Below are positions 3,937 to 33,252 of a stretch of 59,254 bases of DNA, in pieces. The notes under the pieces are model-generated. The model ran no database searches. It saw only the letters and a list, made by a program, of their open reading frames with translations, and was not told the origin of the DNA. Numbering within the stretch: position 1 is the first letter of the stretch; every line of letters starts with the position of its first letter. Where the stretch lies: the NCBI GenBank assembly GCA_043778555.1, contig JAYWFY010000045.1, positions 1 to 59,254 on the forward strand, given 5' to 3'. The DNA is from a bacterium. GTDB lineage: Bacteria > Patescibacteriota > JACMRA01. The translations under genes and the position numbers were made by a program.

Positions 3937-5187
3937 TTAATTTTGATCTGGGAATAATAGTTTAAGTTTGGCGGTTCGGTCGTTTTTAGGCTTTGTAAAG
4001 TGTTGCAGTGAATAGCGTAGGGAATCACAACAATCATCCAAAACCTTTACAGGTTCATCTTTAATACCATCTTTATTTGTTGCCCATTGGTAGTTTTCAA
4101 CTTCTTTAACTAGATTTTTTGACCCTGCTACGATTTTTAATTTGTAGTTTTGCATGGCTGTGATTCCTGCCAATACTGAACCCGCTCCTTTGTCCGCTGC
4201 CTTTGCCTTGTATCCTGCTTTGACAAGGGTTTCAATTAGTTCTGGTCTGGCTCCATCACAGATAATTGGTATAGTTTTTTCAATCTTTAGGGCATTAAGT
4301 TCAGCAACTAGCATATCGCCAGTCAAACCCCTCTTGTAGAGCATTTCTTGTCCGTAAAGTTCCTTGACTTCCTTATCAATTACCCCAGTCTTGACCATCG
4401 CTGTAGGGTGGTTAAACCCAAAATCCAAACCATAGCAAAAGTCAATGTCTGGAAATTCTGGCACGGTGTCATATTCAGGGAATATCAAGCCCTCTAGTTT
4501 TTGACCCCATTCGCCTTGAGCGTAAATTTTGTAATAATTTGGATTGGTTTTGGCAAAGTCTTCAAGCGTTTTGACATAGTTTTTGTCTAGGAATTTGTTG
4601 TCTTTGTAAGTAGTTTTCAAAATAAAATGATCATCAGGTAGCTTGTCGTGAATCTCTTTTTTGAGCCAGTGATTGACTGAGATTGGATTGTACATCAGCG
4701 TAATTTGCACTTCTTCAAAGCCTCTTAAACGGAGTGACAATTGGTCTAGCTTGTCTCGGCTCTTGATATCCGTGGCTTCTTCAATTACAATTCTGTCCGC
4801 TCCAGAGATAGATTTGACCTTTTCTGGGTCGTCCAAACCTAGAAATATAAATTCCACCTCGGTTAGTTTGTTGATTACGGACAGTGGCGAAACTGTAAAA
4901 GTAAAGTATTGCTGGATATTCCAATCGTTAATTAGTGATTTGATTTGGTTGTAGCAAGAGTTCTTGAGTGTTGAGTAATACTCACGGATTACCAGCGTTT
5001 TGCGTCCTTTGCGTCGATAATCAAAAGTCAAGGCAATTTCTTTTTGAAACTCAAAGACAGATTTTCCACTTCCAGCCGAACCCACAAGGTGCAAAAACCT
5101 TGCTTTATTCTCAAACAAAGGAATATATACTGAGTTGTACAGATCAGGATTAGAAAAATCAAAAGTTTGTTTTTGAATATTTGGCAT
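3937..5187 (-). CDS. terL: Terminase large subunit
   Basis: 416 aa with Walker A-like LVGSAGSGKS and a C-terminal nuclease-like acidic region (ICDGARPE, LDDCCDSLRY). It sits upstream of the portal gene. Confidence 0.85.
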   Translation of the reverse strand: MPNIQKQTFDFSNPDLYNSVYIPLFENKARFLHLVGSAGSGKSVFEFQKEIALTFDYRRKGRKTLVIREYYSTLKNSCYNQIKSLINDWNIQQYFTFTVSPLSVINKLTEVEFIFLGLDDPEKVKSISGADRIVIEEATDIKSRDKLDQLSLRLRGFEEVQITLMYNPISVNHWLKKEIHDKLPDDHFILKTTYKDNKFLDKNYVKTLEDFAKTNPNYYKIYAQGEWGQKLEGLIFPEYDTVPEFPDIDFCYGLDFGFNHPTAMVKTGVIDKEVKELYGQEMLYKRGLTGDMLVAELNALKIEKTIPIICDGARPELIETLVKAGYKAKAADKGAGSVLAGITAMQNYKLKIVAGSKNLVKEVENYQWATNKDGIKDEPVKVLDDCCDSLRYSLQHFTKPKNDRTAKLKLLFPDQN

Positions 5188-19929: not shown

Positions 19930-20841
19930 ATGATTCCTCAAAAATTCGTCAAATATACTATAAAAGAATTTCGTAAAAACTTTGCCACAGATGACATTTG
20001 CCTAGATTATCTATTCAAACAGTTCTACGGTCATTTGAGTGATTTTGATAAATACTACAAAATTAAAGGTCGTAAAGAATATGTACACTCTGTAACTGGA
20101 GAGCATATCTCGCCAACTGCAAATAGTATTTTTCATAAATCTAGTACTCCTTTGACAACTTGGTTTGAGGTAATCTACAAGTTCTGTAATAGTCGAAATG
20201 GTGTTAGTGCAATGGAAATAATGCGTGATTTTGGTATGACCTACAAATGTGCTTGGAGAGTTGCAAATCAAGTAAGAAGTCTGTTTGGATCAAATAAAGC
20301 TGACAAACTAGCTGGAATTATAGAGGCGGACGAAACTTACATCGGAGGCAAAGAAGGTAATAAAAAACTAAGTAAAAGACAAAAAGGAACTCAAGGTAGA
20401 AGCTCCAAAACAAAAACTCCAGTGATAGGAGTTGTAAAGCGAACTGATGAAGATTCTAAGTCTGAAATTCGAGCTAAAGTAGTCGCTGATACTTCACGAT
20501 CAACAATAATGCCATTTGTCAAAGCAAATGTAGAAATCAATTCTAGTTTGATGACTGATGAATATCAATCTTACAACGGAGCATATAGTGCTGGATATGA
20601 CCACCAAAGAGTAATCCATAGCTCTAGCCAATATGTCCTTGGAAATGTTTATACAAACACTTTGGAGGGCTTTTGGTCACTGCTTAAATGTGGAATTACT
20701 GGAACTTATAGAATGGTCTCACCAAAGTATCTACAAATGTATGTCAATGAGTTTATGTATCGTTACAATCACGACCATAGCAAATCTCATTTGTTTGACA
20801 CTGTACTTTGTAATTTAGTTAAGAATGATTTAATTGTTTAG
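19930..20841 (+). CDS. IS1595-family (ISXO2-like) DDE transposase
   Basis: 303 aa. ..LAGIIEADETYIGGKEGNKK.. and ..LMTDEYQSYNG..HQRVIHS..TNTLEGFWSLLK fit the DDE_Tnp_IS1595 pattern. Confidence 0.8.
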   Translation: MIPQKFVKYTIKEFRKNFATDDICLDYLFKQFYGHLSDFDKYYKIKGRKEYVHSVTGEHISPTANSIFHKSSTPLTTWFEVIYKFCNSRNGVSAMEIMRDFGMTYKCAWRVANQVRSLFGSNKADKLAGIIEADETYIGGKEGNKKLSKRQKGTQGRSSKTKTPVIGVVKRTDEDSKSEIRAKVVADTSRSTIMPFVKANVEINSSLMTDEYQSYNGAYSAGYDHQRVIHSSSQYVLGNVYTNTLEGFWSLLKCGITGTYRMVSPKYLQMYVNEFMYRYNHDHSKSHLFDTVLCNLVKNDLIV

Positions 20842-25674: not shown

Positions 25675-25764
25675 ATGCTCTCTATGGACTTTATTTACTC
25701 ATTATTCCCTTGTATTACAGGCTTCATAATTGGTAGTTTAATTGCAAAACACATCTTAAAATAA
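25675..25764 (+). CDS. Micro-ORF (29 aa), single-TM peptide
   Basis: MLSMDFIYSLFPCITGFIIGSLIAKHILK*. It starts 1 nt after the previous stop. Confidence 0.35.
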   Translation: MLSMDFIYSLFPCITGFIIGSLIAKHILK

Positions 25765-25775
25765 CCCTTTATAAC

Positions 25776-25880
25776 ATGACTAACTCACAAACCATAATTA
25801 ACTTCATAATCTGGTTAATCCTAGCAGGCTATTTTTTAGCCATCTTTACCTATTTTCTATTCCATTCAGGAGTTCAGTGA
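25776..25880 (+). CDS. Micro-ORF (34 aa), single-TM peptide
   Basis: MTNSQTIINFIIWLILAGYFLAIFTYFLFHSGVQ*. Confidence 0.35.
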   Translation: MTNSQTIINFIIWLILAGYFLAIFTYFLFHSGVQ

Positions 25881-25922: not shown

Positions 25923-26156
25923 CTATAATCCACCAAGCATTTCAAAAAAAGTTTCTTCATCTAGTCCTATTTGTTTCAGATATGTTTTTACATGAAACGG
26001 TGGTATATTTTTATCTTTTGGCTTGACAATCAGTGGTCGTTTATCTCCTATACGAGCGTAAAAAAAGTGGCTACCAGTAGATCTGATAAACACAAACCCT
26101 AGCAGTTCTAATATTTTTACAAAATCTTTAGTTTTGATAGGAGGGAACGGCGGCAT
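25923..26156 (-). CDS. hicA: HicA-family mRNA interferase toxin
   Basis: 77 aa. ..KDFVKILELLGFVFIRSTGSHFFY..PLIVKPKDKNIPPFHVKTYLKQIGL matches the HicA pattern (GSH...; vp.H...l..g.l..ilkq.g). Confidence 0.75.
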   Translation of the reverse strand: MPPFPPIKTKDFVKILELLGFVFIRSTGSHFFYARIGDKRPLIVKPKDKNIPPFHVKTYLKQIGLDEETFFEMLGGL

Positions 26157-26490
26157 GAGTAGCTGGTTTAAAAGATAACAATGTTTTTATTACAAAAGGT
26201 GGAATAATCGTCACTTCATGATCGTTCTCTATTACTTTCCAGCCACATTCGCTCATTACTTCGTTCAGTGTGCCAAGATCCATCAAAGTTTCAAAAAACC
26301 CTTGCAAAGCCTCATTCATCTCGGTAAAACAACCTTCTTGAGTATCTGCCCAAGTTGAGACTTCCAAATCTGGACATTCTACTAGCCATAGACCGTTTTC
26401 TTGTAAAGATATTTCAATAGGTACACCACCCATCAGCTGGATTTGTTTTGTGACAGTGTTCACTTTACAGATTTTGTTATTATTTTTCAT
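26128..26490 (-). CDS. hicB: HicB-family antitoxin
   Basis: ATG at 26490 (MKNNNKICK..; the track start at 26580 is a TTG). ..GLWLVECPDLEVSTWADTQEGCFTEMNEALQGFFE.. is a HicB/UPF0150-like fold motif. It overlaps hicA by 29 nt. Confidence 0.6.
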   Translation of the reverse strand: MKNNNKICKVNTVTKQIQLMGGVPIEISLQENGLWLVECPDLEVSTWADTQEGCFTEMNEALQGFFETLMDLGTLNEVMSECGWKVIENDHEVTIIPPFVIKTLLSFKPATHAAVPSYQN

Positions 26491-26529: not shown

Positions 26530-26603
26530 ATATTGTTTATTTTCAAGCTCTTTGTCAAATTGTAGAAACTCACGTAGCAATTGATCAGCAGTAAAATCTT
26601 CAC

Positions 26604-26641
26604 TAGATAGTTAAGCAATTAATAATTTTACAGCCAAGAAA
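26604..26641 (+). promoter_or_regulatory. Conserved 38-mer leader/operator, copy 2
   Basis: TAGATAGTTAAGCAATTAATAATTTTACAGCCAAGAAA. Confidence 0.7.
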
Positions 26642-26654
26642 TCAAAACTTTAAT

Positions 26655-26722
26655 TCTATTCATTAATCCAGTGAATAGAGCCTAAGGTTTTTACCTTAAT
26701 CCGTTGCCGACAAAAACAACGG
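26655..26722 (+). promoter_or_regulatory. Three consecutive hairpins in the envelope-operon leader
   Basis: TCTATTCA-N9-TGAATAGA, then TAAGGT-tttt-ACCTTA, then CCGTTG-N10-CAACGG. AATCC(A/G)T occurs in or next to the loops. Confidence 0.5.
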
Positions 26723-26780
26723 TGGAAACAAATACAAACAAGTGGACATACTTTTACAACCAAAACAAACAACAAACATT

Positions 26781-26882
26781 ATGCCTGAATTCATGCAGCA
26801 ATACATCTCACCAACATCTACACCAGTGCCACCATCTGACGCTGAAATCCTAAATACTATTACAAACCAATTATCAAAATAA
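26781..26882 (+). CDS. Leader micro-ORF (33 aa)
   Basis: MPEFMQQYISPTSTPVPPSDAEILNTITNQLSK*. Its start context CAAAACAA..TTATGCC is shared with 23706. Confidence 0.3.
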   Translation: MPEFMQQYISPTSTPVPPSDAEILNTITNQLSK

Positions 26883-26954
26883 ACATTATGTTAGAAATAT
26901 ACATCAGAACTGAAAGCGGCAATGCTACTGGTTCAATTTGCAACCAATAAAAAA

Positions 26955-27131
26955 ATGAGCTTGTTACAGCTCACTAATAAATTTCTTTCAAAAAATTCAC
27001 TTTTAATTATGACCCAAACCCAACAAACAGTCAAATCAAAATTAGTATTAATCCTCAAAATCTTAGCCTCTATCCTTACAGCTAAGTATTTTTTAGACAT
27101 TTTTTTCTACTTTTTAACAAACACCAACTAA
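26955..27131 (+). CDS. Small membrane protein
   Basis: ATG inside track ORF 26922..27131. TM segment LVLILKILASILTAKYFLDIFFYFL. Confidence 0.4.
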   Translation: MSLLQLTNKFLSKNSLLIMTQTQQTVKSKLVLILKILASILTAKYFLDIFFYFLTNTN

Positions 27132-27138
27132 TTCTAAA

Positions 27139-27360
27139 ATGACAAACACAAGCACAAAAGAGGAGATCCTTCTCGAAAACAAAAAGTTTACAGCCAGCTT
27201 GATTTTTATTCCAATGCTCGCAGTGTTGATCGCTGGAGTAATAGGCGGTATCAACCAACAGCCAAGCCCTCAGTATCCAGATTTGCCAAAAGGTTGCACT
27301 CCAACTTCACGGTCAATGTTTTGTCCAAACTGGTACCAAAATTCTATCAATCTCAAATAA
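27139..27360 (+). CDS. Small single-TM protein with an extracytoplasmic Cys pair
   Basis: 73 aa with TM LIFIPMLAVLIAGVIGG, then ..GCTPTSRSMFCPNWY. Confidence 0.55.
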   Translation: MTNTSTKEEILLENKKFTASLIFIPMLAVLIAGVIGGINQQPSPQYPDLPKGCTPTSRSMFCPNWYQNSINLK

Positions 27361-27370
27361 CCAAGCCAAA

Positions 27371-27613
27371 ATGTCTCTATATATATTTTTAGGTTTTATT
27401 GCTTTTATCGCAATAGCCAGCTCCAAAAAACCACAAACAAAATCATCCAACAACCACGCCAATCAGTTAGCTCCTACAGCTTACCACGCTCAGTCTATGA
27501 GCCACCTTGAAGGCGTAGGTACAATGGCAACCCAAATCACCAACAACGCCAGCTTTGGCAAGTTCCAAGGTTTAGATGGGACTATTGTCAACTGGTCAAT
27601 CGAAAAAAAATAA
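27371..27613 (+). CDS. Small N-terminally anchored or secreted protein
   Basis: 80 aa with N-terminal hydrophobic MSLYIFLGFIAFIAIASS. Confidence 0.55.
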   Translation: MSLYIFLGFIAFIAIASSKKPQTKSSNNHANQLAPTAYHAQSMSHLEGVGTMATQITNNASFGKFQGLDGTIVNWSIEKK

Positions 27614-27621
27614 ATACATAT

Positions 27622-28041
27622 ATGCCTACCATCACACTACCTCGCTTTTCAGATATGCTTAAAAAACAGCCAACCGAGAAGGATCTCAATGACCAGCGTG
27701 TCCGAGATCAATACAAAAAAGAAGCTATTACTCAAGCCGACCTAGAAGCTCAAAAGCAAATAGTCAAAAGTAATATACCATCTTTAATCTTTGTACTTTT
27801 AGTCGTTGCAGCAACAATTTATGGTTATTTTAGTCAAGAATTTGTAGCTAGATTTTTTACAGAATTAATTATTAGCTGGATTGATCAAGCCAATTTATTT
27901 ATCAGAACTCCTCAGGGCATTTTGATATTGGCAATGTTTATCTACATTGTAGCCGTGACCAAGTTTCCAGCTCAAACACATTTTATACAAACAAAAACAT
28001 CAACATTATGGTCAAAACTATCCTCATTATTGCAGCGGTAA
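27622..28041 (+). CDS. Membrane protein (2 TM)
   Basis: 139 aa with TMs IPSLIFVLLVVAATIYGYF and GILILAMFIYIVAV. Confidence 0.55.
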   Translation: MPTITLPRFSDMLKKQPTEKDLNDQRVRDQYKKEAITQADLEAQKQIVKSNIPSLIFVLLVVAATIYGYFSQEFVARFFTELIISWIDQANLFIRTPQGILILAMFIYIVAVTKFPAQTHFIQTKTSTLWSKLSSLLQR

Positions 28042-28670
28042 TCTATGTCTTTGTGACTTTTATAGCTCCAATTCCAAAAGATATACAAGCCAAGCAAGCC
28101 TATGGTCTTACTTCTAACAAAGTTATTCCAATTACAGCTCAAGCTCAAACCAATATTACTCAGATTATAGGCAACAAACTCAAAGAAGCTAACCCAGCCC
28201 AGTATCTAGGTCAAAGCATCAAAACTTCTAGTATTGGTCTAGTGGACAACCAAACCCTAGATTGTGTGGATCTGTTTAATGTTGATCTCTTCAACCGTAC
28301 AGGCATCAAACCCAAGATTAAAGTTGGCGGTGCAAAACAAATCTGGAATAATCCAAGCCTAGAGATTGACCAAAGTATCAAATTTGAGAAAATTCTAAAC
28401 AGCCCAGACTTTGTACCTAAAAAAGGTGATTATCTTGTTTGGACTACTTACCCAGAAAGTGATAATCCAAAGTTTAAGTCCAAAGACGGTGCAGGCAATG
28501 TTTTAGCAGGTGACAGCGATTATGGTCACGTGGCTATAGACAGCGGAGAATCAACTTCTAATATGCTTATTGATTACGAGCAAGATACCTTTGCAAATGT
28601 TCCAACTTACAAAGCAGAAAGATCTTATCACAATCTTGCAGGCGTAATCCGCTTAATTTCAATCAATTAA
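28008..28670 (+). CDS. Exported/anchored CHAP-domain peptidoglycan hydrolase
   Basis: N-terminal signal anchor ILIIAAVIYVFVTFIA. Candidate catalytic Cys in ..TLDCVDLF.. and His in ..DYGHVAID.., a CHAP pattern. Confidence 0.65.
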   Translation: MVKTILIIAAVIYVFVTFIAPIPKDIQAKQAYGLTSNKVIPITAQAQTNITQIIGNKLKEANPAQYLGQSIKTSSIGLVDNQTLDCVDLFNVDLFNRTGIKPKIKVGGAKQIWNNPSLEIDQSIKFEKILNSPDFVPKKGDYLVWTTYPESDNPKFKSKDGAGNVLAGDSDYGHVAIDSGESTSNMLIDYEQDTFANVPTYKAERSYHNLAGVIRLISIN

Positions 28671-28680
28671 CAAAAATAAA

Positions 28681-29460
28681 ATGTCCAACATCAAAACATA
28701 CATGTTTGTAGCAGGTTTTATTATCCTTGCAGTAGTTGCAATTAATAACCCAAGACAAACACCAAACAAAACAGCTCAGGCACAAGTGACAGCCCAGTCA
28801 AGTATTTCTAATGTTTCAAGCGTTTCAAGCATTCCATCCAGTAAAACCAAAACTGAAACTATCAAAGTAGAAGCCCAAAGCGAGCCAACACTAGCTCAAA
28901 GTACAGACGATAATGTCAAAGCCGAAATGTTAGCCAAAGCGGATCAAAAATTCAGCTGGAACGCCAGCAACTCTACAGTAGCTAATGTTGTTATTCCAGA
29001 AGTCAAAGCCACAAGTTGCAATACCACTGTTGACGCTCATAGCTTAAAAAACGATATGCAAAAGGGCTCAGAACAGATCAATTTCTTTTTAGATTATTTT
29101 ATAGACAAAGGCTTTACTTGCAACGGTGCTAGCTACATGACAGCCTCACTAATTACCGAATCAAGTTTAAATTCTCTCAAAGATGAAAAGTGTGGCTTTG
29201 GTTTTTGTGGTGAATCTGAAGGGCTAGCTCAGTGGCGATCTACTAGACTCAAGGAACTCCGCAAAACCTGCGACCCGCAAGGCGACCGTGACTGTCAACT
29301 AAAGTTTTTGATACAGGAACTCAAACAGCGAGGTCAATATCAACCTTTTCTTACAGACGATGTAGACAATATAAAATCTACAATTGCCAAGTACGAAGGG
29401 TATGCCACACCGGGTGACCGCTTTGAGATAGCCACCAAAATTTTAAACAATCTAAAGTAA
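28681..29460 (+). CDS. Exported phage-tail-lysozyme-like (lysozyme-fold) protein
   Basis: Signal peptide (..FIILAVVAINN..KTAQAQV) and an S-rich linker. ..ASLITESSLN..GFGFCGESEGLAQWRSTRLKEL..CQLKFLIQELK.. resembles the Phage_lysozyme2 pattern (ES...G.GiaQW...R...L...Ql.f...El). Confidence 0.55.
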   Translation: MSNIKTYMFVAGFIILAVVAINNPRQTPNKTAQAQVTAQSSISNVSSVSSIPSSKTKTETIKVEAQSEPTLAQSTDDNVKAEMLAKADQKFSWNASNSTVANVVIPEVKATSCNTTVDAHSLKNDMQKGSEQINFFLDYFIDKGFTCNGASYMTASLITESSLNSLKDEKCGFGFCGESEGLAQWRSTRLKELRKTCDPQGDRDCQLKFLIQELKQRGQYQPFLTDDVDNIKSTIAKYEGYATPGDRFEIATKILNNLK

Positions 29461-29471
29461 TTCTAATTTTT

Positions 29472-29576
29472 ATGTCACATTACGATCACAAGATCTATTC
29501 AACTATTGTCTATCCAACAATCTCAATCCTCATTTTTTCAACAATTTTATTCATCTATTTTCTTTTTAAACTCTAA
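29472..29576 (+). CDS. Micro-ORF (34 aa), hydrophobic peptide
   Basis: Hand translation: MSHYDHKIYSTIVYPTISILIFSTILFIYFLFKL*. It ends 5 nt before the next ATG. Confidence 0.3.
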   Translation: MSHYDHKIYSTIVYPTISILIFSTILFIYFLFKL

Positions 29577-29581
29577 CTATT

Positions 29582-29824
29582 ATGTCCAAAATTATCAAAT
29601 TATCAATCACCATTTTTTGTTTTCTCACTACTTTTTTTGTAGCAAATGCAATATCTCAATCTTACCAATTAGACAGCTTACTTGTCCAAGCTAACCGTCA
29701 CCAAAGCGTCATAAACAAAACAATGACGAACGGCTCTTGCCAATCTGTCAACGCTTGCACAACCAGTCAAAAAGGAGTAGGTTTGGCTGCCAACGATTGC
29801 AAGCCTACAGAAACTTGCCAATAG
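29582..29824 (+). CDS. Small secreted Cys-rich protein
   Basis: 80 aa with signal peptide ..ITIFCFLTTFFVANA and a mature part with 4 Cys (..GSCQSVNACTT..NDCKPTETCQ). A terminator follows. Confidence 0.55.
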   Translation: MSKIIKLSITIFCFLTTFFVANAISQSYQLDSLLVQANRHQSVINKTMTNGSCQSVNACTTSQKGVGLAANDCKPTETCQ

Positions 29825-29829
29825 ACTTA

Positions 29830-29854
29830 GACCGCCTCACCAGCGGTTTTTTTT
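29830..29854 (+). terminator. Terminator of the envelope operon
   Basis: GACCGC-ctcacca-GCGGTT plus T8, then GTTGCT. Confidence 0.6.
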
Positions 29855-30022
29855 GTTGCTCAAATTCCAAGCAAAAAATCATTTGTCAAAGTGGCGTTAT
29901 GGAATGGTGCAAATAACCTTGTGCAGTTGCTAATGCCTTGTTATTGTTGGTTATATGCCGTTTGTTGTCAAATAGTCTTGACAAGTTAAACTCAAAGTGT
30001 CAATATTATATTAAGTAGAAGT

Positions 30023-30046
30023 TGTAATTAATTAATGTTAATTACA
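30023..30046. repeat. AT-rich palindrome TGTAATTAA-ttaatg-TTAATTACA (attP core or sRNA hairpin candidate)
   Basis: 9-bp perfect arms, 42 nt from the int stop codon. Confidence 0.6.
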
Positions 30047-30050
30047 TATT

Positions 30051-30077
30051 GCCCCTCGATTTGAGGGGTCTTTTTTT
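30051..30077 (+). terminator. Strong intrinsic terminator next to the 3' end of int
   Basis: GCCCCTC-gattt-GAGGGGT plus T7. Confidence 0.7.
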
Positions 30078-30088
30078 ATGCCCAAAAA

Positions 30089-31756
30089 TCACACTTTCAA
30101 ACTCATAATCACACCGACCCGCTCTTGACAAAACTGTAATAAATAATCAACCTTAAAAGGTTCAATATTGACCCGCTCAGTTGCACCATTGACAAATTCA
30201 TCATCTAATTCACCCCAAAAGTCCCTTAACAAAGGGCTTTTTTGTTGGTTCAATACAACCACTTTGTCATCTTTCTTATAGACTACAAATCCTTCAGGAA
30301 AAAGCAAGTTCAAAAGCTTTTTTTTAGTGGTATTATTGGCTTGATTAAAGCGTTTGTCAATTTCTATAGCTTCATCCAAACAAAGGTTCAATACATCTCC
30401 GACTTTGGCTTTTGGCTCACTAGATAATTTAATCAATTCTTTTTTGTATTCTAAAATCTTATTATTGTTTTCTACAGATTTTTTTTCAATAGCTTTCACC
30501 AAAGCTGGAGAATCAACAAGTAATATTTTTGCCACTGCCGTTTCATTTTCGATTTCAATATCTTTAATTTTTCGTTTAATCTTATCAATTTCTTTTTGGT
30601 TTTCAGCTTGTATATTTTTAGCTTTCTCTCCGAGGTATTTTTGCAGGTATTGAATAAATTTCAATGACAATACTTGTTTGGACAAATAGTTCAAAACTTC
30701 AAGCTCTATGAGTTCAGAGCGTATTGTCTTTGATTGCTGGTTACAGCCACGAGTGGGGCAAGCGTAATATTGCCACTCCAAAACACTCCCATTTTTTAAT
30801 GTTTTCTTTTTTAATTGTGTTGTCATGAAGTTTTGACACTCACTACATTTAGCGCAGCGTTTAAATATAAATTGATTATTGTTATTTTTCATGTATGCTG
30901 ATCTTTGAGATTTATTAATTCTTTCTAATATTTTTAAGTAAGTGTTTAAATCGATAATAGGCTTGTGAAGAGCATTTGACTTTGGGAAATTTGTTTTTTT
31001 GTCTACATTCTTTGGGTCGTACATATCTACGCCTTGGTTGGGTTTGTGGATAAATCCAGCATACAGAGGATTGGTGAGCATATCTTTGACATCCTCTTGT
31101 CTCTTGTTTATTCCAAGGCTTCTCAGATACTTTTGAACCTCTGCGCAACCTGAATAATTCCCATTAGCAAAGTCTTCTAGTAGCTCTTTAACTACAGGGG
31201 CTTTATCATTTTGTTGCATTATTTTAAGTTGTGATTTACCACTATTGTCATAGCCAAGTGGTGAGCCATAAAACCAATAACCTTGCTGGAGTCTCGCTTT
31301 TGACCGCTCCTTGGCTGTAGTAAGGTTAGATTTACGCATAAACTCATCTTGCCCACCCATCATCGTGAGCATTAACCAGCCAGCGTCAGTTTTCATATCT
31401 ACACCGTGCAGGTTAAAAAATTGAACATCATAATTATAGTCTTTTGTCAGTGTATCTACTGTAGAAAGCAGGAATATTACATCCCGAGCTAGCCTTGAAG
31501 TAGAAGGAAACAGCACCGTCAGATTTGGATTTTCTTTGCATTTTACTAGCAACAAATCAATCCCCTCTCGCTGTCTATTTCCTCCGCTAATAGCTTCATC
31601 TTGGAATGATTCCATGATCATATACCCATATTTTTTGGCATATTCCTTGCACTCTTGTAGCTGTGAACTCAGACCATTACCTTCGGTGACTTGCTTCCGT
31701 GATGACACTCTGCAATAGGTAAAACAGGGCTTTAGTTCTTGGACTTGGTCGGACAT
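30089..31756 (-). CDS. int: Large serine recombinase (integrase)
   Basis: 555 aa. N-terminal resolvase motif ..FTYCRVSSRKQ... It also has a recombinase domain, a zinc ribbon (CAKCSEC..YYACPTRGC) and a C-terminal coiled coil. Confidence 0.85.
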   Translation of the reverse strand: MSDQVQELKPCFTYCRVSSRKQVTEGNGLSSQLQECKEYAKKYGYMIMESFQDEAISGGNRQREGIDLLLVKCKENPNLTVLFPSTSRLARDVIFLLSTVDTLTKDYNYDVQFFNLHGVDMKTDAGWLMLTMMGGQDEFMRKSNLTTAKERSKARLQQGYWFYGSPLGYDNSGKSQLKIMQQNDKAPVVKELLEDFANGNYSGCAEVQKYLRSLGINKRQEDVKDMLTNPLYAGFIHKPNQGVDMYDPKNVDKKTNFPKSNALHKPIIDLNTYLKILERINKSQRSAYMKNNNNQFIFKRCAKCSECQNFMTTQLKKKTLKNGSVLEWQYYACPTRGCNQQSKTIRSELIELEVLNYLSKQVLSLKFIQYLQKYLGEKAKNIQAENQKEIDKIKRKIKDIEIENETAVAKILLVDSPALVKAIEKKSVENNNKILEYKKELIKLSSEPKAKVGDVLNLCLDEAIEIDKRFNQANNTTKKKLLNLLFPEGFVVYKKDDKVVVLNQQKSPLLRDFWGELDDEFVNGATERVNIEPFKVDYLLQFCQERVGVIMSLKV

Positions 31757-32223: not shown

Positions 32224-33252
32224 TTATTTTTTAATAATATTTTGAGATAGATCAACAACTCCTTGAGCAACTAGGTAAGTCAAGAATGAGCTGTACGCTG
32301 GCAGTAACATTGCCGACCACTCTGGATTTATACCAACCAAAGCAGAAGGAATTAATCCGCCAAAGATAAAAGATAAGAATTTCTTAGATTGATACCATTT
32401 TTTAGAAGTGCTGGTCGGGGCTTGAGCAAGTTGGACTCGTAACTCCTTGTTTTGCTCTTGGCACTCGGTGAGATTGTCAGATTGAACTTGTAGATCTTTT
32501 ATATGTGCTTGTTGAACAAGCTGAACATTATTAGCCGCTACAATTAAACCATCTTCAGCAGTCTTTTTATCCGCTTTTATTGCTTCGTATTTGTCTTGAA
32601 GAATGCTATAATCAGATTTATATTTCATCAACAATTCATCTCTAGGCAGTACATAATCAATCATTATCATTTCTGCCACTGCTCCACATCCGTGGATTTG
32701 CCGACCCAAAACAAACGGCTGATCAAGCCCTGGATACTGTCCTTTATACTTGGCTACAAATTCTTGCATAGTAGTTTGTACTGGAATTTGGACAGTTTCT
32801 TGAGGCTGGGAAACCGATTGATTTTCTGGCTTTTTACGTAACCACCCTAAGACATTTGTGTACTCATATTCTCCCCCCATGATAGCGTCGTTATTACCAT
32901 ATTTGTTTTGCTCGGTTACATAAACTTTATCCAGAGTTGCACTGTTGACAATTGCAATATGACCATAGCCACCACCCATATTTGTGTTAAAAACAACAAT
33001 ATCACCTTGCTGCGGAGTATTGTCAGGTCGGTTTTTGATTAGCTCGACAAGGTCAGAGCGACCGTTGATAAGGCTGGTCGGATAGTCAATGTAAGCGTCC
33101 ACTGCTCCACCTATGTCATTAAATCGAGAGCTGGTCATACCCCAAACTTCTTCTACATATAGCCGAGGGTAGTCCACACATTGTACATCATTGTTGCGAT
33201 CAAAATCCTGTTTGGTTCCGACGTATTTATTGATAAATTGTTGATAAGTCAT
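32224..33252 (-). CDS. CHAP-domain endolysin with coiled coil and two C-terminal hydrophobic helices
   Basis: N-terminus ..DVQCVDYPR.. (Cys) and ..GGYGHIAIV.. (His). C-terminus ..FLSFIFGGLIPSALVGI..AMLLPAYSSFLTYLVAQGVV. Confidence 0.7.
   Translation of the reverse strand: MTYQQFINKYVGTKQDFDRNNDVQCVDYPRLYVEEVWGMTSSRFNDIGGAVDAYIDYPTSLINGRSDLVELIKNRPDNTPQQGDIVVFNTNMGGGYGHIAIVNSATLDKVYVTEQNKYGNNDAIMGGEYEYTNVLGWLRKKPENQSVSQPQETVQIPVQTTMQEFVAKYKGQYPGLDQPFVLGRQIHGCGAVAEMIMIDYVLPRDELLMKYKSDYSILQDKYEAIKADKKTAEDGLIVAANNVQLVQQAHIKDLQVQSDNLTECQEQNKELRVQLAQAPTSTSKKWYQSKKFLSFIFGGLIPSALVGINPEWSAMLLPAYSSFLTYLVAQGVVDLSQNIIKK

Follow-up and report, generated by a model that had tools for sequence, protein, structure and literature searches.

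Phage enzymes that cut peptidoglycan usually have one of two roles, as endolysins at lysis or as virion lysins at entry. Some endolysins are exported and work with holins or pinholins, including Lys44 of fOg44, which has a signal peptide, and the signal-anchor-release (SAR) endolysins of P1 and phage 21. In Gram-positive conjugation, a membrane-anchored muramidase or soluble lytic transglycosylase (SLT) together with a CHAP or NlpC/P60 domain is the hallmark of the hydrolases of type IV secretion systems (T4SS); TraG of pIP501, PrgK of pCF10, and CwlT of ICEBs1 are anchored, combine a lysozyme or transglycosylase with CHAP or NlpC/P60, and act on the wall of the cell that produces them. Temperate phages also have accessory (moron) cassettes on the side of the attachment site (att), for example gtrABC of Shigella and Salmonella phages, sie beside int in lactococcal and streptococcal phages, and the sublancin operon of SPbeta. 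We analyzed an operon in a 59,254-nucleotide stretch of DNA (contig JAYWFY010000045.1; hereafter the window) that is the circular form of a temperate siphovirus. The operon is next to the phage attachment site and encodes a CHAP enzyme (P0003) and a lysozyme (P0004) amid small membrane and secreted proteins.

We believe, with a probability of roughly 0.45, that the operon is a moron-type accessory envelope module, in which remodeling of the lysogen's own wall (action in cis) and lysis of kin (allolysis) are not separable. The domain identities, the intact catalytic residues, the export and anchor signals, the architecture, the position at the prophage end, and the recurrence in other phages are observed. 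A stronger version, which we consider doubtful, is that the operon represents a new class of accessory module in phages, in which two enzymes that cut peptidoglycan are tethered to the membrane and are expressed from the prophage with dedicated micro-protein partners. Such a module would remodel the lysogen wall (for example, for phage exclusion) or lyse non-lysogenic kin, and would spread as a cassette among unrelated temperate phages of an uncultured lineage without Shine-Dalgarno sequences.

The two enzymes resemble described phage proteins in their catalytic domains and differ from them in layout and location. P0004 shares the lysozyme-like fold and the Glu and AQW motifs with gp13 of phi29 and the other PF18013 virion hydrolases, and in both cases glycan and peptide cutting are paired. 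In contrast to gp13, the two activities of the operon are on separate small proteins, each with an N-terminal export or anchor segment, the genes are outside the structural module and amid genes for small membrane proteins, and the peptidase is a CHAP rather than an M23 enzyme. P0003 has the fold, the Cys-His-Glu set, and the GDxxVW and YGHVAI motifs of CHAP endolysins (LysK/CHAPK, LysGH15, PlyPy, and that of this phage), but it has an N-terminal transmembrane (TM) anchor and no wall-binding domain, and it is encoded outside the lysis cassette.

The gene set as a whole differs from each of the systems above. VirB1-type conjugative hydrolases are likewise anchored glycan and peptide cutters encoded amid small membrane proteins, but the operon has no ATPases, coupling protein, VirB6/VirB8, relaxase, or plasmid relatives, and the element is a tailed temperate phage. 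Exported endolysins are Sec-exported wall hydrolases too, and a small two-TM gene overlaps the hydrolase gene in both cases, whereas the operon is away from a complete late cassette and on the opposite strand, has a strongly hydrophobic anchor, and encodes two enzymes and many more small proteins. Like moron cassettes, it is an autonomous att-proximal unit with envelope-acting products that adjoins a toxin-antitoxin pair and moves between unrelated phages; however, a pair of peptidoglycan hydrolases with small partners was not found described as such cargo, and expression in the lysogen is predicted here. By analogy only, the combination of an anchored glycan cutter, an anchored peptide cutter, and a multi-TM partner is also that of the SpoIID/SpoIIP/SpoIIM engulfment proteins of Bacillus, with no sequence or domain relationship and in another biological setting.

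Both enzyme families are already known, as are muramidase-peptidase pairings in tail lysins, in T4SS hydrolases, and in the fused Phage_lysozyme2-CHAP architecture reported in Streptococcus (PMC8051824). What is new is that the two activities are on separate export-anchored proteins, with conserved micro-proteins as partners, and that the operon encoding them is att-adjacent in a temperate phage. The preliminary description of this DNA knew of no such gene set, and we likewise found none in PHROGs, PADLOC, NCBIfam, INPHARED, PLSDB, or a search of the literature. If our reading is correct, surface export from an att-adjacent accessory operon with micro-proteins would be a third role for phage wall hydrolases, would add a way for prophages to change the host envelope or interactions with neighbors, and would supply new anchored hydrolase/partner pairs for study, with the 34-aa (amino acid) and Cys-rich micro-proteins as candidate regulators or inhibitors of peptidoglycan hydrolases. 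If the operon is instead an auxiliary lysis set, the finding would be ordinary.

Architecture and products of the operon

The operon is separate and tightly packed, with a structured leader and its own terminator, as had been proposed. Nine consecutive open reading frames (ORFs) that look like coding sequences are on the plus strand at 26.6-29.86 kb, between hicBA and the serine integrase gene. From 27131 on, their spacings are 7, 10, 8, -34, 10, 11, and 5 nt (gaps of 5-11 nt and one 34-nt overlap), and the tight packing together with the overlap points to co-translation as a set. TM segments were assigned by Kyte-Doolittle (KD) hydropathy, topology by the positive-inside rule, and signal peptides and cleavage sites by eye (-3/-1 rule). 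The features of the operon, and the attP core beyond it, are as follows.

26599-26626, plus strand: candidate sigma-70-type promoter, TTCACT-16-AATAAT (consensus scan, 9/12 match, weak)
26654-26722, plus strand: structured leader with three hairpins (RNA fold, z = -3.1)
26781-26882, plus strand: micro-ORF of 33 aa, or 46 aa from GTG 26742 (codon score +0.38 bits/codon)
26955-27131, plus strand: small single-TM protein of 58 aa, or 69 aa from 26922, or 40 aa from 27009 (hydropathy; codon score +0.17)
27139-27360, plus strand: 73-aa bitopic membrane protein (TM 17-35; codon score +0.17)
27371-27613, plus strand: 80-aa protein P0001 with an N-terminal TM (ORF list, hydropathy, public gene callers)
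27622-28041, plus strand: 139-aa two-TM protein P0002 (hydropathy; 34-nt overlap with the CHAP gene)
28008-28670, plus strand: 220-aa signal-anchored CHAP enzyme P0003 (PHROG 8781, alignment, fold)
28681-29460, plus strand: 259-aa exported PF18013 lysozyme P0004 (Pfam, alignments, fold)
29472-29576, plus strand: 34-aa hydrophobic micro-protein (homologue in locus L006, described below; codon score +0.12)
29582-29824, plus strand: 80-aa secreted Cys protein P0005 (hydropathy, signal peptide by eye, homologues)
29829-29857, plus strand: intrinsic terminator of the operon, a 7-bp G+C-rich stem (29829-29849) followed by T8 (terminator scan)
30183-30188, unstranded: attP crossover core GCACCA (comparison of the window with the junctions at the prophage ends L001, ~11500, and L010, ~11570)

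Codon usage supports nine of the roughly ten products first described. The log-odds model was derived from 35 long genes of this phage (true-gene windows had a mean of 0.37 and a 5th percentile of 0.16; the off-frame 95th percentile was -0.28 bits/codon). All nine ORFs scored positive in the stated frame (0.12-0.41 bits/codon), which was the best of the six each time. An alternative 49-aa ORF (26704-26853) had a negative score, the sole such case. Public gene callers recorded five of the nine products (80, 139, 220, 259, and 80 aa). The upstream micro-ORFs are without comparative support, and the 33-aa ORF has no homologue and is absent from the public gene calls.

The leader is more stable than expected from its composition, as only 2 of 200 shuffled sequences were equally stable when 26654-26722 was folded. 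Its first hairpin (26656-26678) is a palindrome with a perfect stem of 9-11 bp. We considered that this palindrome might be a repeated operator site, which was ruled out because it occurs only once in the window, and a riboswitch or other known leader RNA is not supported, as no Rfam family matches the leader. The promoter candidate of the operon is divergent from, and back-to-back with, a better-scoring match to a promoter for hicBA.

The two hydrolases, called initially from motifs, were upheld by alignments and fold comparisons, and P0004 also by its Pfam profile. On the evidence of sequence and structural models, P0003 is a genuine N-terminally membrane-anchored CHAP peptidoglycan amidase/endopeptidase and is predicted to be active. 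It matched PHROG endolysin family 8781 (E 2.2e-8), and its match to the Pfam CHAP family (PF05257; 14.8 bits, E 0.042) was below the cut-off of 26. In an alignment of 28 sequences (A1), C86, H174, and Q192 were invariant, with E191 and D193 on either side of Q192. This alignment reproduces the Cys-His-Glu(-Asn) set of CHAP enzymes, with C86, H174, and E191 as the catalytic residues of P0003. The AlphaFold model (pLDDT 80.5) has the fold of the CHAP domains of LysGH15, LysK, LysIME-EF1, and PlyPy; the top Foldseek matches in the PDB were 4olk, 4csh, 6ist, and 5udm (probability 1.0, E down to 6e-6). The N-terminal anchor, TILIIAAVIYVFVTFIA, has a KD value of 2.64 and no -3/-1 cleavage site by eye, and it is without the weakly hydrophobic, Gly/Ala-rich character expected of a releasable SAR anchor. 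Identity between P0003 and the lysis-cassette endolysin of this phage is only 25%. Ahead of the catalytic His, P0003 has an insertion of 19 residues that only P0010, a homologue from another phage contig, shares.

By the same kinds of evidence, P0004 is a genuine exported gp13-type lysozyme, also predicted to be active. It scored 32.9 bits against PF18013 (Phage_lysozyme2; gathering score 28.2) over residues 137-225 (E 8.5e-8), and the precomputed assignment agrees. An N-terminal hydrophobic segment (KD 1.97, rich in Phe, Ile, Leu, and Val) is followed by an S/T-rich linker of ~100 aa and the catalytic domain (124-258), and this layout of a hydrophobic N-terminus, a low-complexity linker, and a domain is common to P0004, P0011, P0012, P0013, and P0016. 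E160, Q184, and W185 were invariant in an alignment of 25 sequences; in one of 44 sequences, Q184 and W185 were invariant and E160 was at least 90% conserved. Also conserved are S161 and three invariant cysteines (C147, C197, and C205). The preliminary description was thus right about an exported lysozyme, and the catalytic Glu is E160 in LITESS, outside the GESEG stretch that it quoted. The domain is modeled with pLDDT >90, and its best Foldseek matches were 3csq/3csr, the N-domain of phi29 gp13 (E 2e-4), with a fungal muramidase and lambda lysozyme ranking next. There is a possible cleavage site at VVA/I, and several homologues have TQA/ sites (alignment A3, by eye). Sequence searches of the PDB with P0003 and P0004 found nothing significant.

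The remaining products are small, and by hydropathy all of the products read as membrane or exported proteins, which favors an envelope function. KD hydropathy agreed with the TM assignments made at first sight: there is one TM each in the 58/69-, 73-, 80- (P0001), and 34-aa products and two in the 139-aa P0002. The product of the 33-aa micro-ORF is soluble and rich in Pro, Thr, and Ser. The TM of the 73-aa protein has a KD value of 2.48, and the protein is predicted to be N-in/C-out with a Cys-x8-Cys pair in its external tail. The TM of P0001 is at the extreme N-terminus and is followed by KK. P0002 has a hairpin of two TMs (52-70 and 99-117) with charged N- and C-terminal tails, a shape that suggests a holin-like or partner-like protein, and, as is usual for a holin and its endolysin, a small multi-TM protein with a charged C-terminus is encoded by a gene that overlaps that of the enzyme. 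P0002 matched no holin or other family in Pfam, PHROGs, NCBIfam, or PADLOC.

The 80-aa protein P0005 is, as described, secreted and Cys-rich. A putative signal peptide ends at ANA/IS after an N-terminal hydrophobic stretch, leaving a mature part of 57 aa with four cysteines in two Cys-x5-Cys pairs. Cysteine pairs are confined to predicted external parts, namely the tail of the 73-aa protein, the lysozyme domain, and P0005. Pfam, PHROGs, NCBIfam, and PADLOC gave no meaningful match to any small protein; Pfam matches to a YxzE-like bacteriocin (E 0.018) and to Colicin_V production (E 0.013) were far below the cut-off. We saw no pilin-like processing motifs in the small proteins by eye. At the C-terminus of P0005, CKPTETC is similar to the loop CKPHDC of Ivy, a lysozyme inhibitor, but the L006 homologue does not conserve it, and we gave the resemblance no weight.

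The operon is at the end of the prophage. In a 107,771-bp metagenome contig, the same phage is integrated, and rnc, the ABC-F gene, and further host genes come after the operon; on the other side of the prophage, the integrase is followed by tRNA-Leu(GAG), tRNA-Leu(TAG), tRNA-Ser, and serS. The bacterial site, attB, is the 3' end (with CCA) of the host tRNA-Leu(GAG), and the attP core is inside the 3' end of the integrase ORF, so that integration swaps the C-terminus of the integrase, which has 555 aa in the circular phage and 529 aa once integrated. In L001, no other prophage module comes between the operon and attR; the operon is ~360 bp from the core and is separated from host rnc by its own terminator and a second terminator at 30051-30069.

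The operon is also separate from the late genes, which form one continuous minus-strand block that already has a CHAP endolysin. The minus-strand genes include those for terminase, portal, capsid, tape measure, tail fiber, a 72-aa two-TM protein, CHAP endolysin, and integrase. The placement of the operon on the strand opposite the lytic genes stood for the late and lysis block and did not for the early genes at 16.5-25.6 kb (RecT-like, PD-(D/E)XK exonuclease), which are also on the plus strand, so the operon is not alone there. The nearest tail gene is ~4 kb away, with int and the lysis cassette in between, and all structural genes are on the opposite strand. The late lysis cassette (31.9-33.5 kb, minus strand) is apart from the operon and is the conventional holin plus CHAP-endolysin cassette that had been described, with the endolysin gene at 32224-33252 flanked by genes for small TM proteins. 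The hydrolases of the operon would probably not be needed for lysis.

Two observations concern sequences repeated within or near the operon. The junctions 27126-27138 and 29455-29471 share TAATTCTAA (a stop codon, TTC, and a second in-frame stop), immediately ahead of the next start codon; this string belongs to a longer direct repeat (26 nt, 73% identity). The 34-aa ORF at 25776-25880 is paralogous to the C-terminal part of ORF 26922-27131 (BLASTP E 0.001; a 30-nt DNA repeat, 80% identity). The 34-aa ORF and one at 25675-25764 (29 aa) are hydrophobic, plus-strand micro-ORFs 3' of the exonuclease gene, and both are coding-like by codon usage.

Related loci in other phages

Parts of the gene set recur in other phages. 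The preliminary description had suggested a search for synteny in phage and metagenome sets, and a partial set was found in three further informative loci (L006, L004, and L008), all of them metagenomic phage contigs. Their genes, in order, are as follows.

L006 (Logan, 8.4 kb), first: CHAP gene, 3' end only; the product is 41% identical to the C-terminus of P0003
L006, second: secreted, Cys-rich relative of P0005, 98 aa (E 2e-5 to 4e-4)
L006, third: 117-aa TM protein
L006, fourth: lysozyme P0011, 42% identity to P0004
L006, fifth: 34-aa peptide, the same length as that of the operon and clearly similar (MSAYDRKIFIKIIYPT... in L006, MSHYDHKIYSTIVYPT... in the window)
L006, sixth: three more small TM proteins
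L004 (JGI, 14.7 kb), first and second: 55-aa protein and 91-aa TM/Cys protein
L004, third: anchored protein of 302 aa with a GLFQIN motif and a weak match to C-type lysozymes (Pfam E 9e-4, below the cut-off)
L004, fourth: CHAP homologue P0010, 47-50% identity
L004, fifth and sixth: HTH_3 protein (HigA-type-antitoxin-like by eye), then four small genes
L004, seventh: convergent serine recombinase, then an M23 peptidase gene in the endolysin position, and tail genes
L008 (ENA, 4.6 kb): beta-clamp gene, the same 55-aa protein, 116-aa TM/Cys protein, lysozyme P0013, and a terminator

What recurs is an anchored muramidase, an anchored CHAP enzyme, and a small exported Cys protein, amid non-homologous small TM proteins. 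The 34-aa homologue in L006 (MSAYDRKIFIKIIYPTSALIAIGVCFCIKLFFQF) is directly 3' of the lysozyme homologue. The relatives of P0005 beside the hydrolases in L004 and L008 are weaker than that in L006, and the four small Cys proteins align weakly around C-x3-N. Comparison of the window with L004, L006, and L008 by tblastx found nothing shared beyond these genes. Since the set recurs in phage contigs that are otherwise unrelated, it looks like a group of mobile accessory genes selected as a set, and it appears, from these comparisons, to move among unrelated phages. The muramidase of L004 is of another type, if the weak assignment holds, which argues for selection on the muramidase-CHAP pairing.

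Other relatives of the enzymes are more distant. In an exhaustive HMMER scan of 1.84 billion representatives, with both enzymes concatenated as the query, the only full-length homologue of P0003 was P0010 (identity of 50% in the HMMER table and ~47% by BLASTP), and many CHAP endolysins were matched as well. The relatives of P0004 in BFVD and INPHARED are tail or baseplate lysins and tape-measure domains, including an 868-aa baseplate-module protein of cyanophage Syn1. Searches of 50,697 phage records with the DNA of the region found no match, and tblastn of P0003 against phages found nothing. In a word-based protein search, P0004 found only itself, and a P0003/P0010 profile found only those two. 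No match came from IMG/VR, scanned with alignment A4 and with P0003, P0004, and the RecT-like protein, or from two scans of JGI metagenomes, and scans of the GTDB representatives found no relatives of P0004 or of the host ABC-F protein.

A distant PF18013 relative is at 2228-2863 of L012 (Logan SRR32206260_49127), a contig that mistranslates under the standard code. The reading frame is interrupted immediately ahead of the conserved QW in the GLAQW motif, which suggests recoding of a stop codon. The gene order of L012 at first seemed suggestive of a T4SS-like context; the contig is apparently recoded and no T4SS family is recorded for its genes, and it was rejected as such.

Possible functions of the operon

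We propose that the attP-proximal operon, with its own promoter region, long structured leader, and terminator, would equip the outer surface of the cytoplasmic membrane with a pair of enzymes that cut peptidoglycan. The stably anchored CHAP amidase/endopeptidase would cut the peptide part of the wall, and the exported gp13-type muramidase, on its long flexible linker, would cut the glycan strand. Five to seven small membrane or secreted proteins would most likely tether, gate, or neutralize the enzymes: the two-TM hairpin translationally coupled to the CHAP enzyme, the 34-aa peptide coupled to the lysozyme, the disulfide-type secreted protein, and the additional single-TM proteins. Expression would be independent of the late lysis cassette and probably from the prophage, and the enzymes would act locally on the lysogen's own wall (remodeling or superinfection exclusion) or on non-immune neighbors.

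A moron-type module is favored because of the prophage-terminal position, the operon's own terminator, the neighboring toxin-antitoxin genes (possibly also in L004), and the cassette-like mobility. The operon has the form of a moron cassette, with a strong terminator, a weak promoter candidate, and a position at the prophage end beside att. Its neighborhood is accessory in character: the operon is flanked by hicAB, and in L004 the CHAP homologue is followed by the HTH_3 gene and is beside a serine recombinase. There was no defense signal (PADLOC, no hit at E <= 1 for the nine products) and no T4SS or plasmid signal. Within this reading, a role in cis is favored because the CHAP anchor is strongly hydrophobic, and action on kin is compatible because the Cys protein has a cleavable signal peptide (by eye) and the lysozyme family has possible cleavage sites.

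Several findings weigh against an accessory envelope module expressed by the prophage. Sigma-70-like matches are not enriched in the region (22 found, 17.4 expected), and the candidate for the operon matches at only 9 of 12 positions. There are four loci in total, the window included, and all are metagenomic. In L004 and L008, the genes ahead of the module, on its strand, are replication or early genes, and it could therefore serve an early lytic function and not one in the lysogen. Every relative of the two enzymes that could be detected is an endolysin or a virion-associated lysin, and a role in lysis is thus conceivable. The small proteins are without a recognizable family, and a role for them as partners or in immunity is conjectural.

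We think it rather unlikely that the operon is primarily a kit for allolysis or a bacteriolysin, in which a lysogen would export the muramidase, the Cys-rich peptide, and possibly a released CHAP enzyme, and would thereby lyse non-lysogenic kin, with the small membrane proteins conferring self-immunity. Functional analogues are the pneumococcal fratricide set (CbpD, LytC, and CibAB/CibC) and the sublancin operon of SPbeta. The plausible cleavable signal peptide of P0005, whose mature part would be a small double Cys-x5-Cys peptide, is consistent with such a kit, as are the TQA/-type sites after the hydrophobic segment in several lysozyme homologues, the differences in small TM proteins between loci (as is often the case for immunity proteins), and the location of the operon at the prophage terminus adjoining a toxin-antitoxin pair. 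P0003 is closest to endolysin CHAP domains with a C-terminal-TM layout like that of the phage's own endolysin, which suggests that the target is the host's type of wall. However, the strongly hydrophobic CHAP anchor is apparently uncleaved (there is a Pro after the only candidate site), and the enzyme should therefore stay on the producer. Neither enzyme has an SH3b, LysM, or choline-binding domain (Pfam), there is no FemABX-type immunity gene, ABC exporter, or double-glycine leader, and the matches to bacteriocin and colicin V families are those noted above as far below the cut-off.

Nor do we consider it probable that the operon is an auxiliary lysis set, in which hydrolases would be pre-loaded in the envelope and unleashed on depolarization, as are signal-peptide and SAR endolysins, with the 139-aa protein acting as a holin or pinholin. 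An early-lytic or auxiliary role is possible because the holin-like protein overlaps the CHAP enzyme and because the modules of L004 and L008 are contiguous with early genes on the same strand. A gene for a two-TM protein with charged tails that overlaps a hydrolase gene by 34 nt is a typical holin-endolysin arrangement, and both enzymes have lysis or virion lysins as their relatives. Against this, the phage already has a complete late cassette on the other strand. The operon is apart from the early genes, with the convergent hicAB in between, has its own terminator, and is outside the late region. The CHAP anchor is strongly hydrophobic and not Gly/Ala-rich like SAR domains, no holin family was matched in PHROGs or Pfam, and the genes move between phages independently of lysis cassettes, the endolysin of L004 being an M23 enzyme.

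It is very unlikely that both enzymes are packaged in the virion and pierce the wall at infection. In phages, PF18013 relatives are nearly all lysins of the tail or baseplate, domains of tape-measure proteins, or internal virion proteins, but both enzymes here are small and stand-alone and start with a hydrophobic export or anchor segment, and their genes are in a separate plus-strand operon amid genes for small membrane proteins, ~4 kb from the nearest tail gene.

The preliminary description had also likened the operon to the wall-crossing part of Gram-positive conjugation systems. The likeness ends with the presence of both a muramidase and a CHAP enzyme, a generic combination that is that of the anchored Gram-positive T4SS hydrolases and is also present in the fused Streptococcus architecture cited above. 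We scanned the products of the operon and 27 further ORFs of the window, including all those >400 aa, against Pfam and PHROGs, and found no VirB4 or VirD4 ATPase, in agreement with that description, and no VirB6 or VirB8 family, relaxase, or oriT. The large ORFs with matches encode portal, terminase, methyltransferase, tape measure, and CHAP endolysin, and the others had no match. No small membrane protein matched VirB6-, VirB8-, or VirB3-like components in Pfam, NCBIfam, or PHROGs, tblastn of P0004 against 72,556 plasmids (PLSDB) found nothing, and the related loci are phage contigs without such genes. It is therefore extremely unlikely that the anchored lysozyme and CHAP enzyme open the wall for a channel of small TM proteins in a conjugation or T4SS-like apparatus.

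Neighboring genes and the host

The operon is flanked by a toxin-antitoxin pair on one side and by the integrase and lysis genes on the other.

25923-26156, minus strand: hicA (PF07927; Pfam)
~26128-26490, minus strand: hicB (gene call)
30089-31756, minus strand: serine integrase (ORF list)
32224-33252, minus strand: main CHAP endolysin, flanked by small TM proteins

In the main endolysin, a CHAP domain at the N-terminus is followed by a coiled coil and, at the C-terminus, by a hydrophobic membrane segment, an unusual layout that the distant relatives P0014, P0015, and P0040 share. For hicB, the mechanical ORF starts at TTG 26580 (150 aa), and public callers start at ATG 26490 (120 aa). With the shorter gene, a match to a promoter (TTGACA-18-AATATT, 26558-26529) is upstream of hicB and not inside it.

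There may be a small-RNA unit between the operon terminator and attP (29965-30078, plus strand). An inverted repeat, TTGTCAA-N6-TTGACAA, overlaps a TTGACA-18-AATATT promoter match, and the possible transcript would be ~60-70 nt with two hairpins and a strong terminator (z = -5.1). In L008, an analogous repeat, promoter, and terminator are right after the lysozyme gene (4480-4585), and the sequences barely align with those of the window.

The host flank has a GC content of 35% and uses the standard genetic code. There was no Shine-Dalgarno motif upstream of ~42 phage genes or of six host genes (L001, 11520-20780). The sequences ahead of the genes are rich in A and T, frequently with A at -3, and in several cases a TATAAT box precedes the ATG by only 6-20 nt. 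Boxes this close to the ATG may reflect leaderless or short-leader mRNAs. Relatives of the terminase are scattered over many phyla. Within the early region, a gene for an IS1595-family (ISXO2-like) transposase (19930-20841, plus strand) is between two divergent P63C-domain genes and is apparently part of an insertion sequence.

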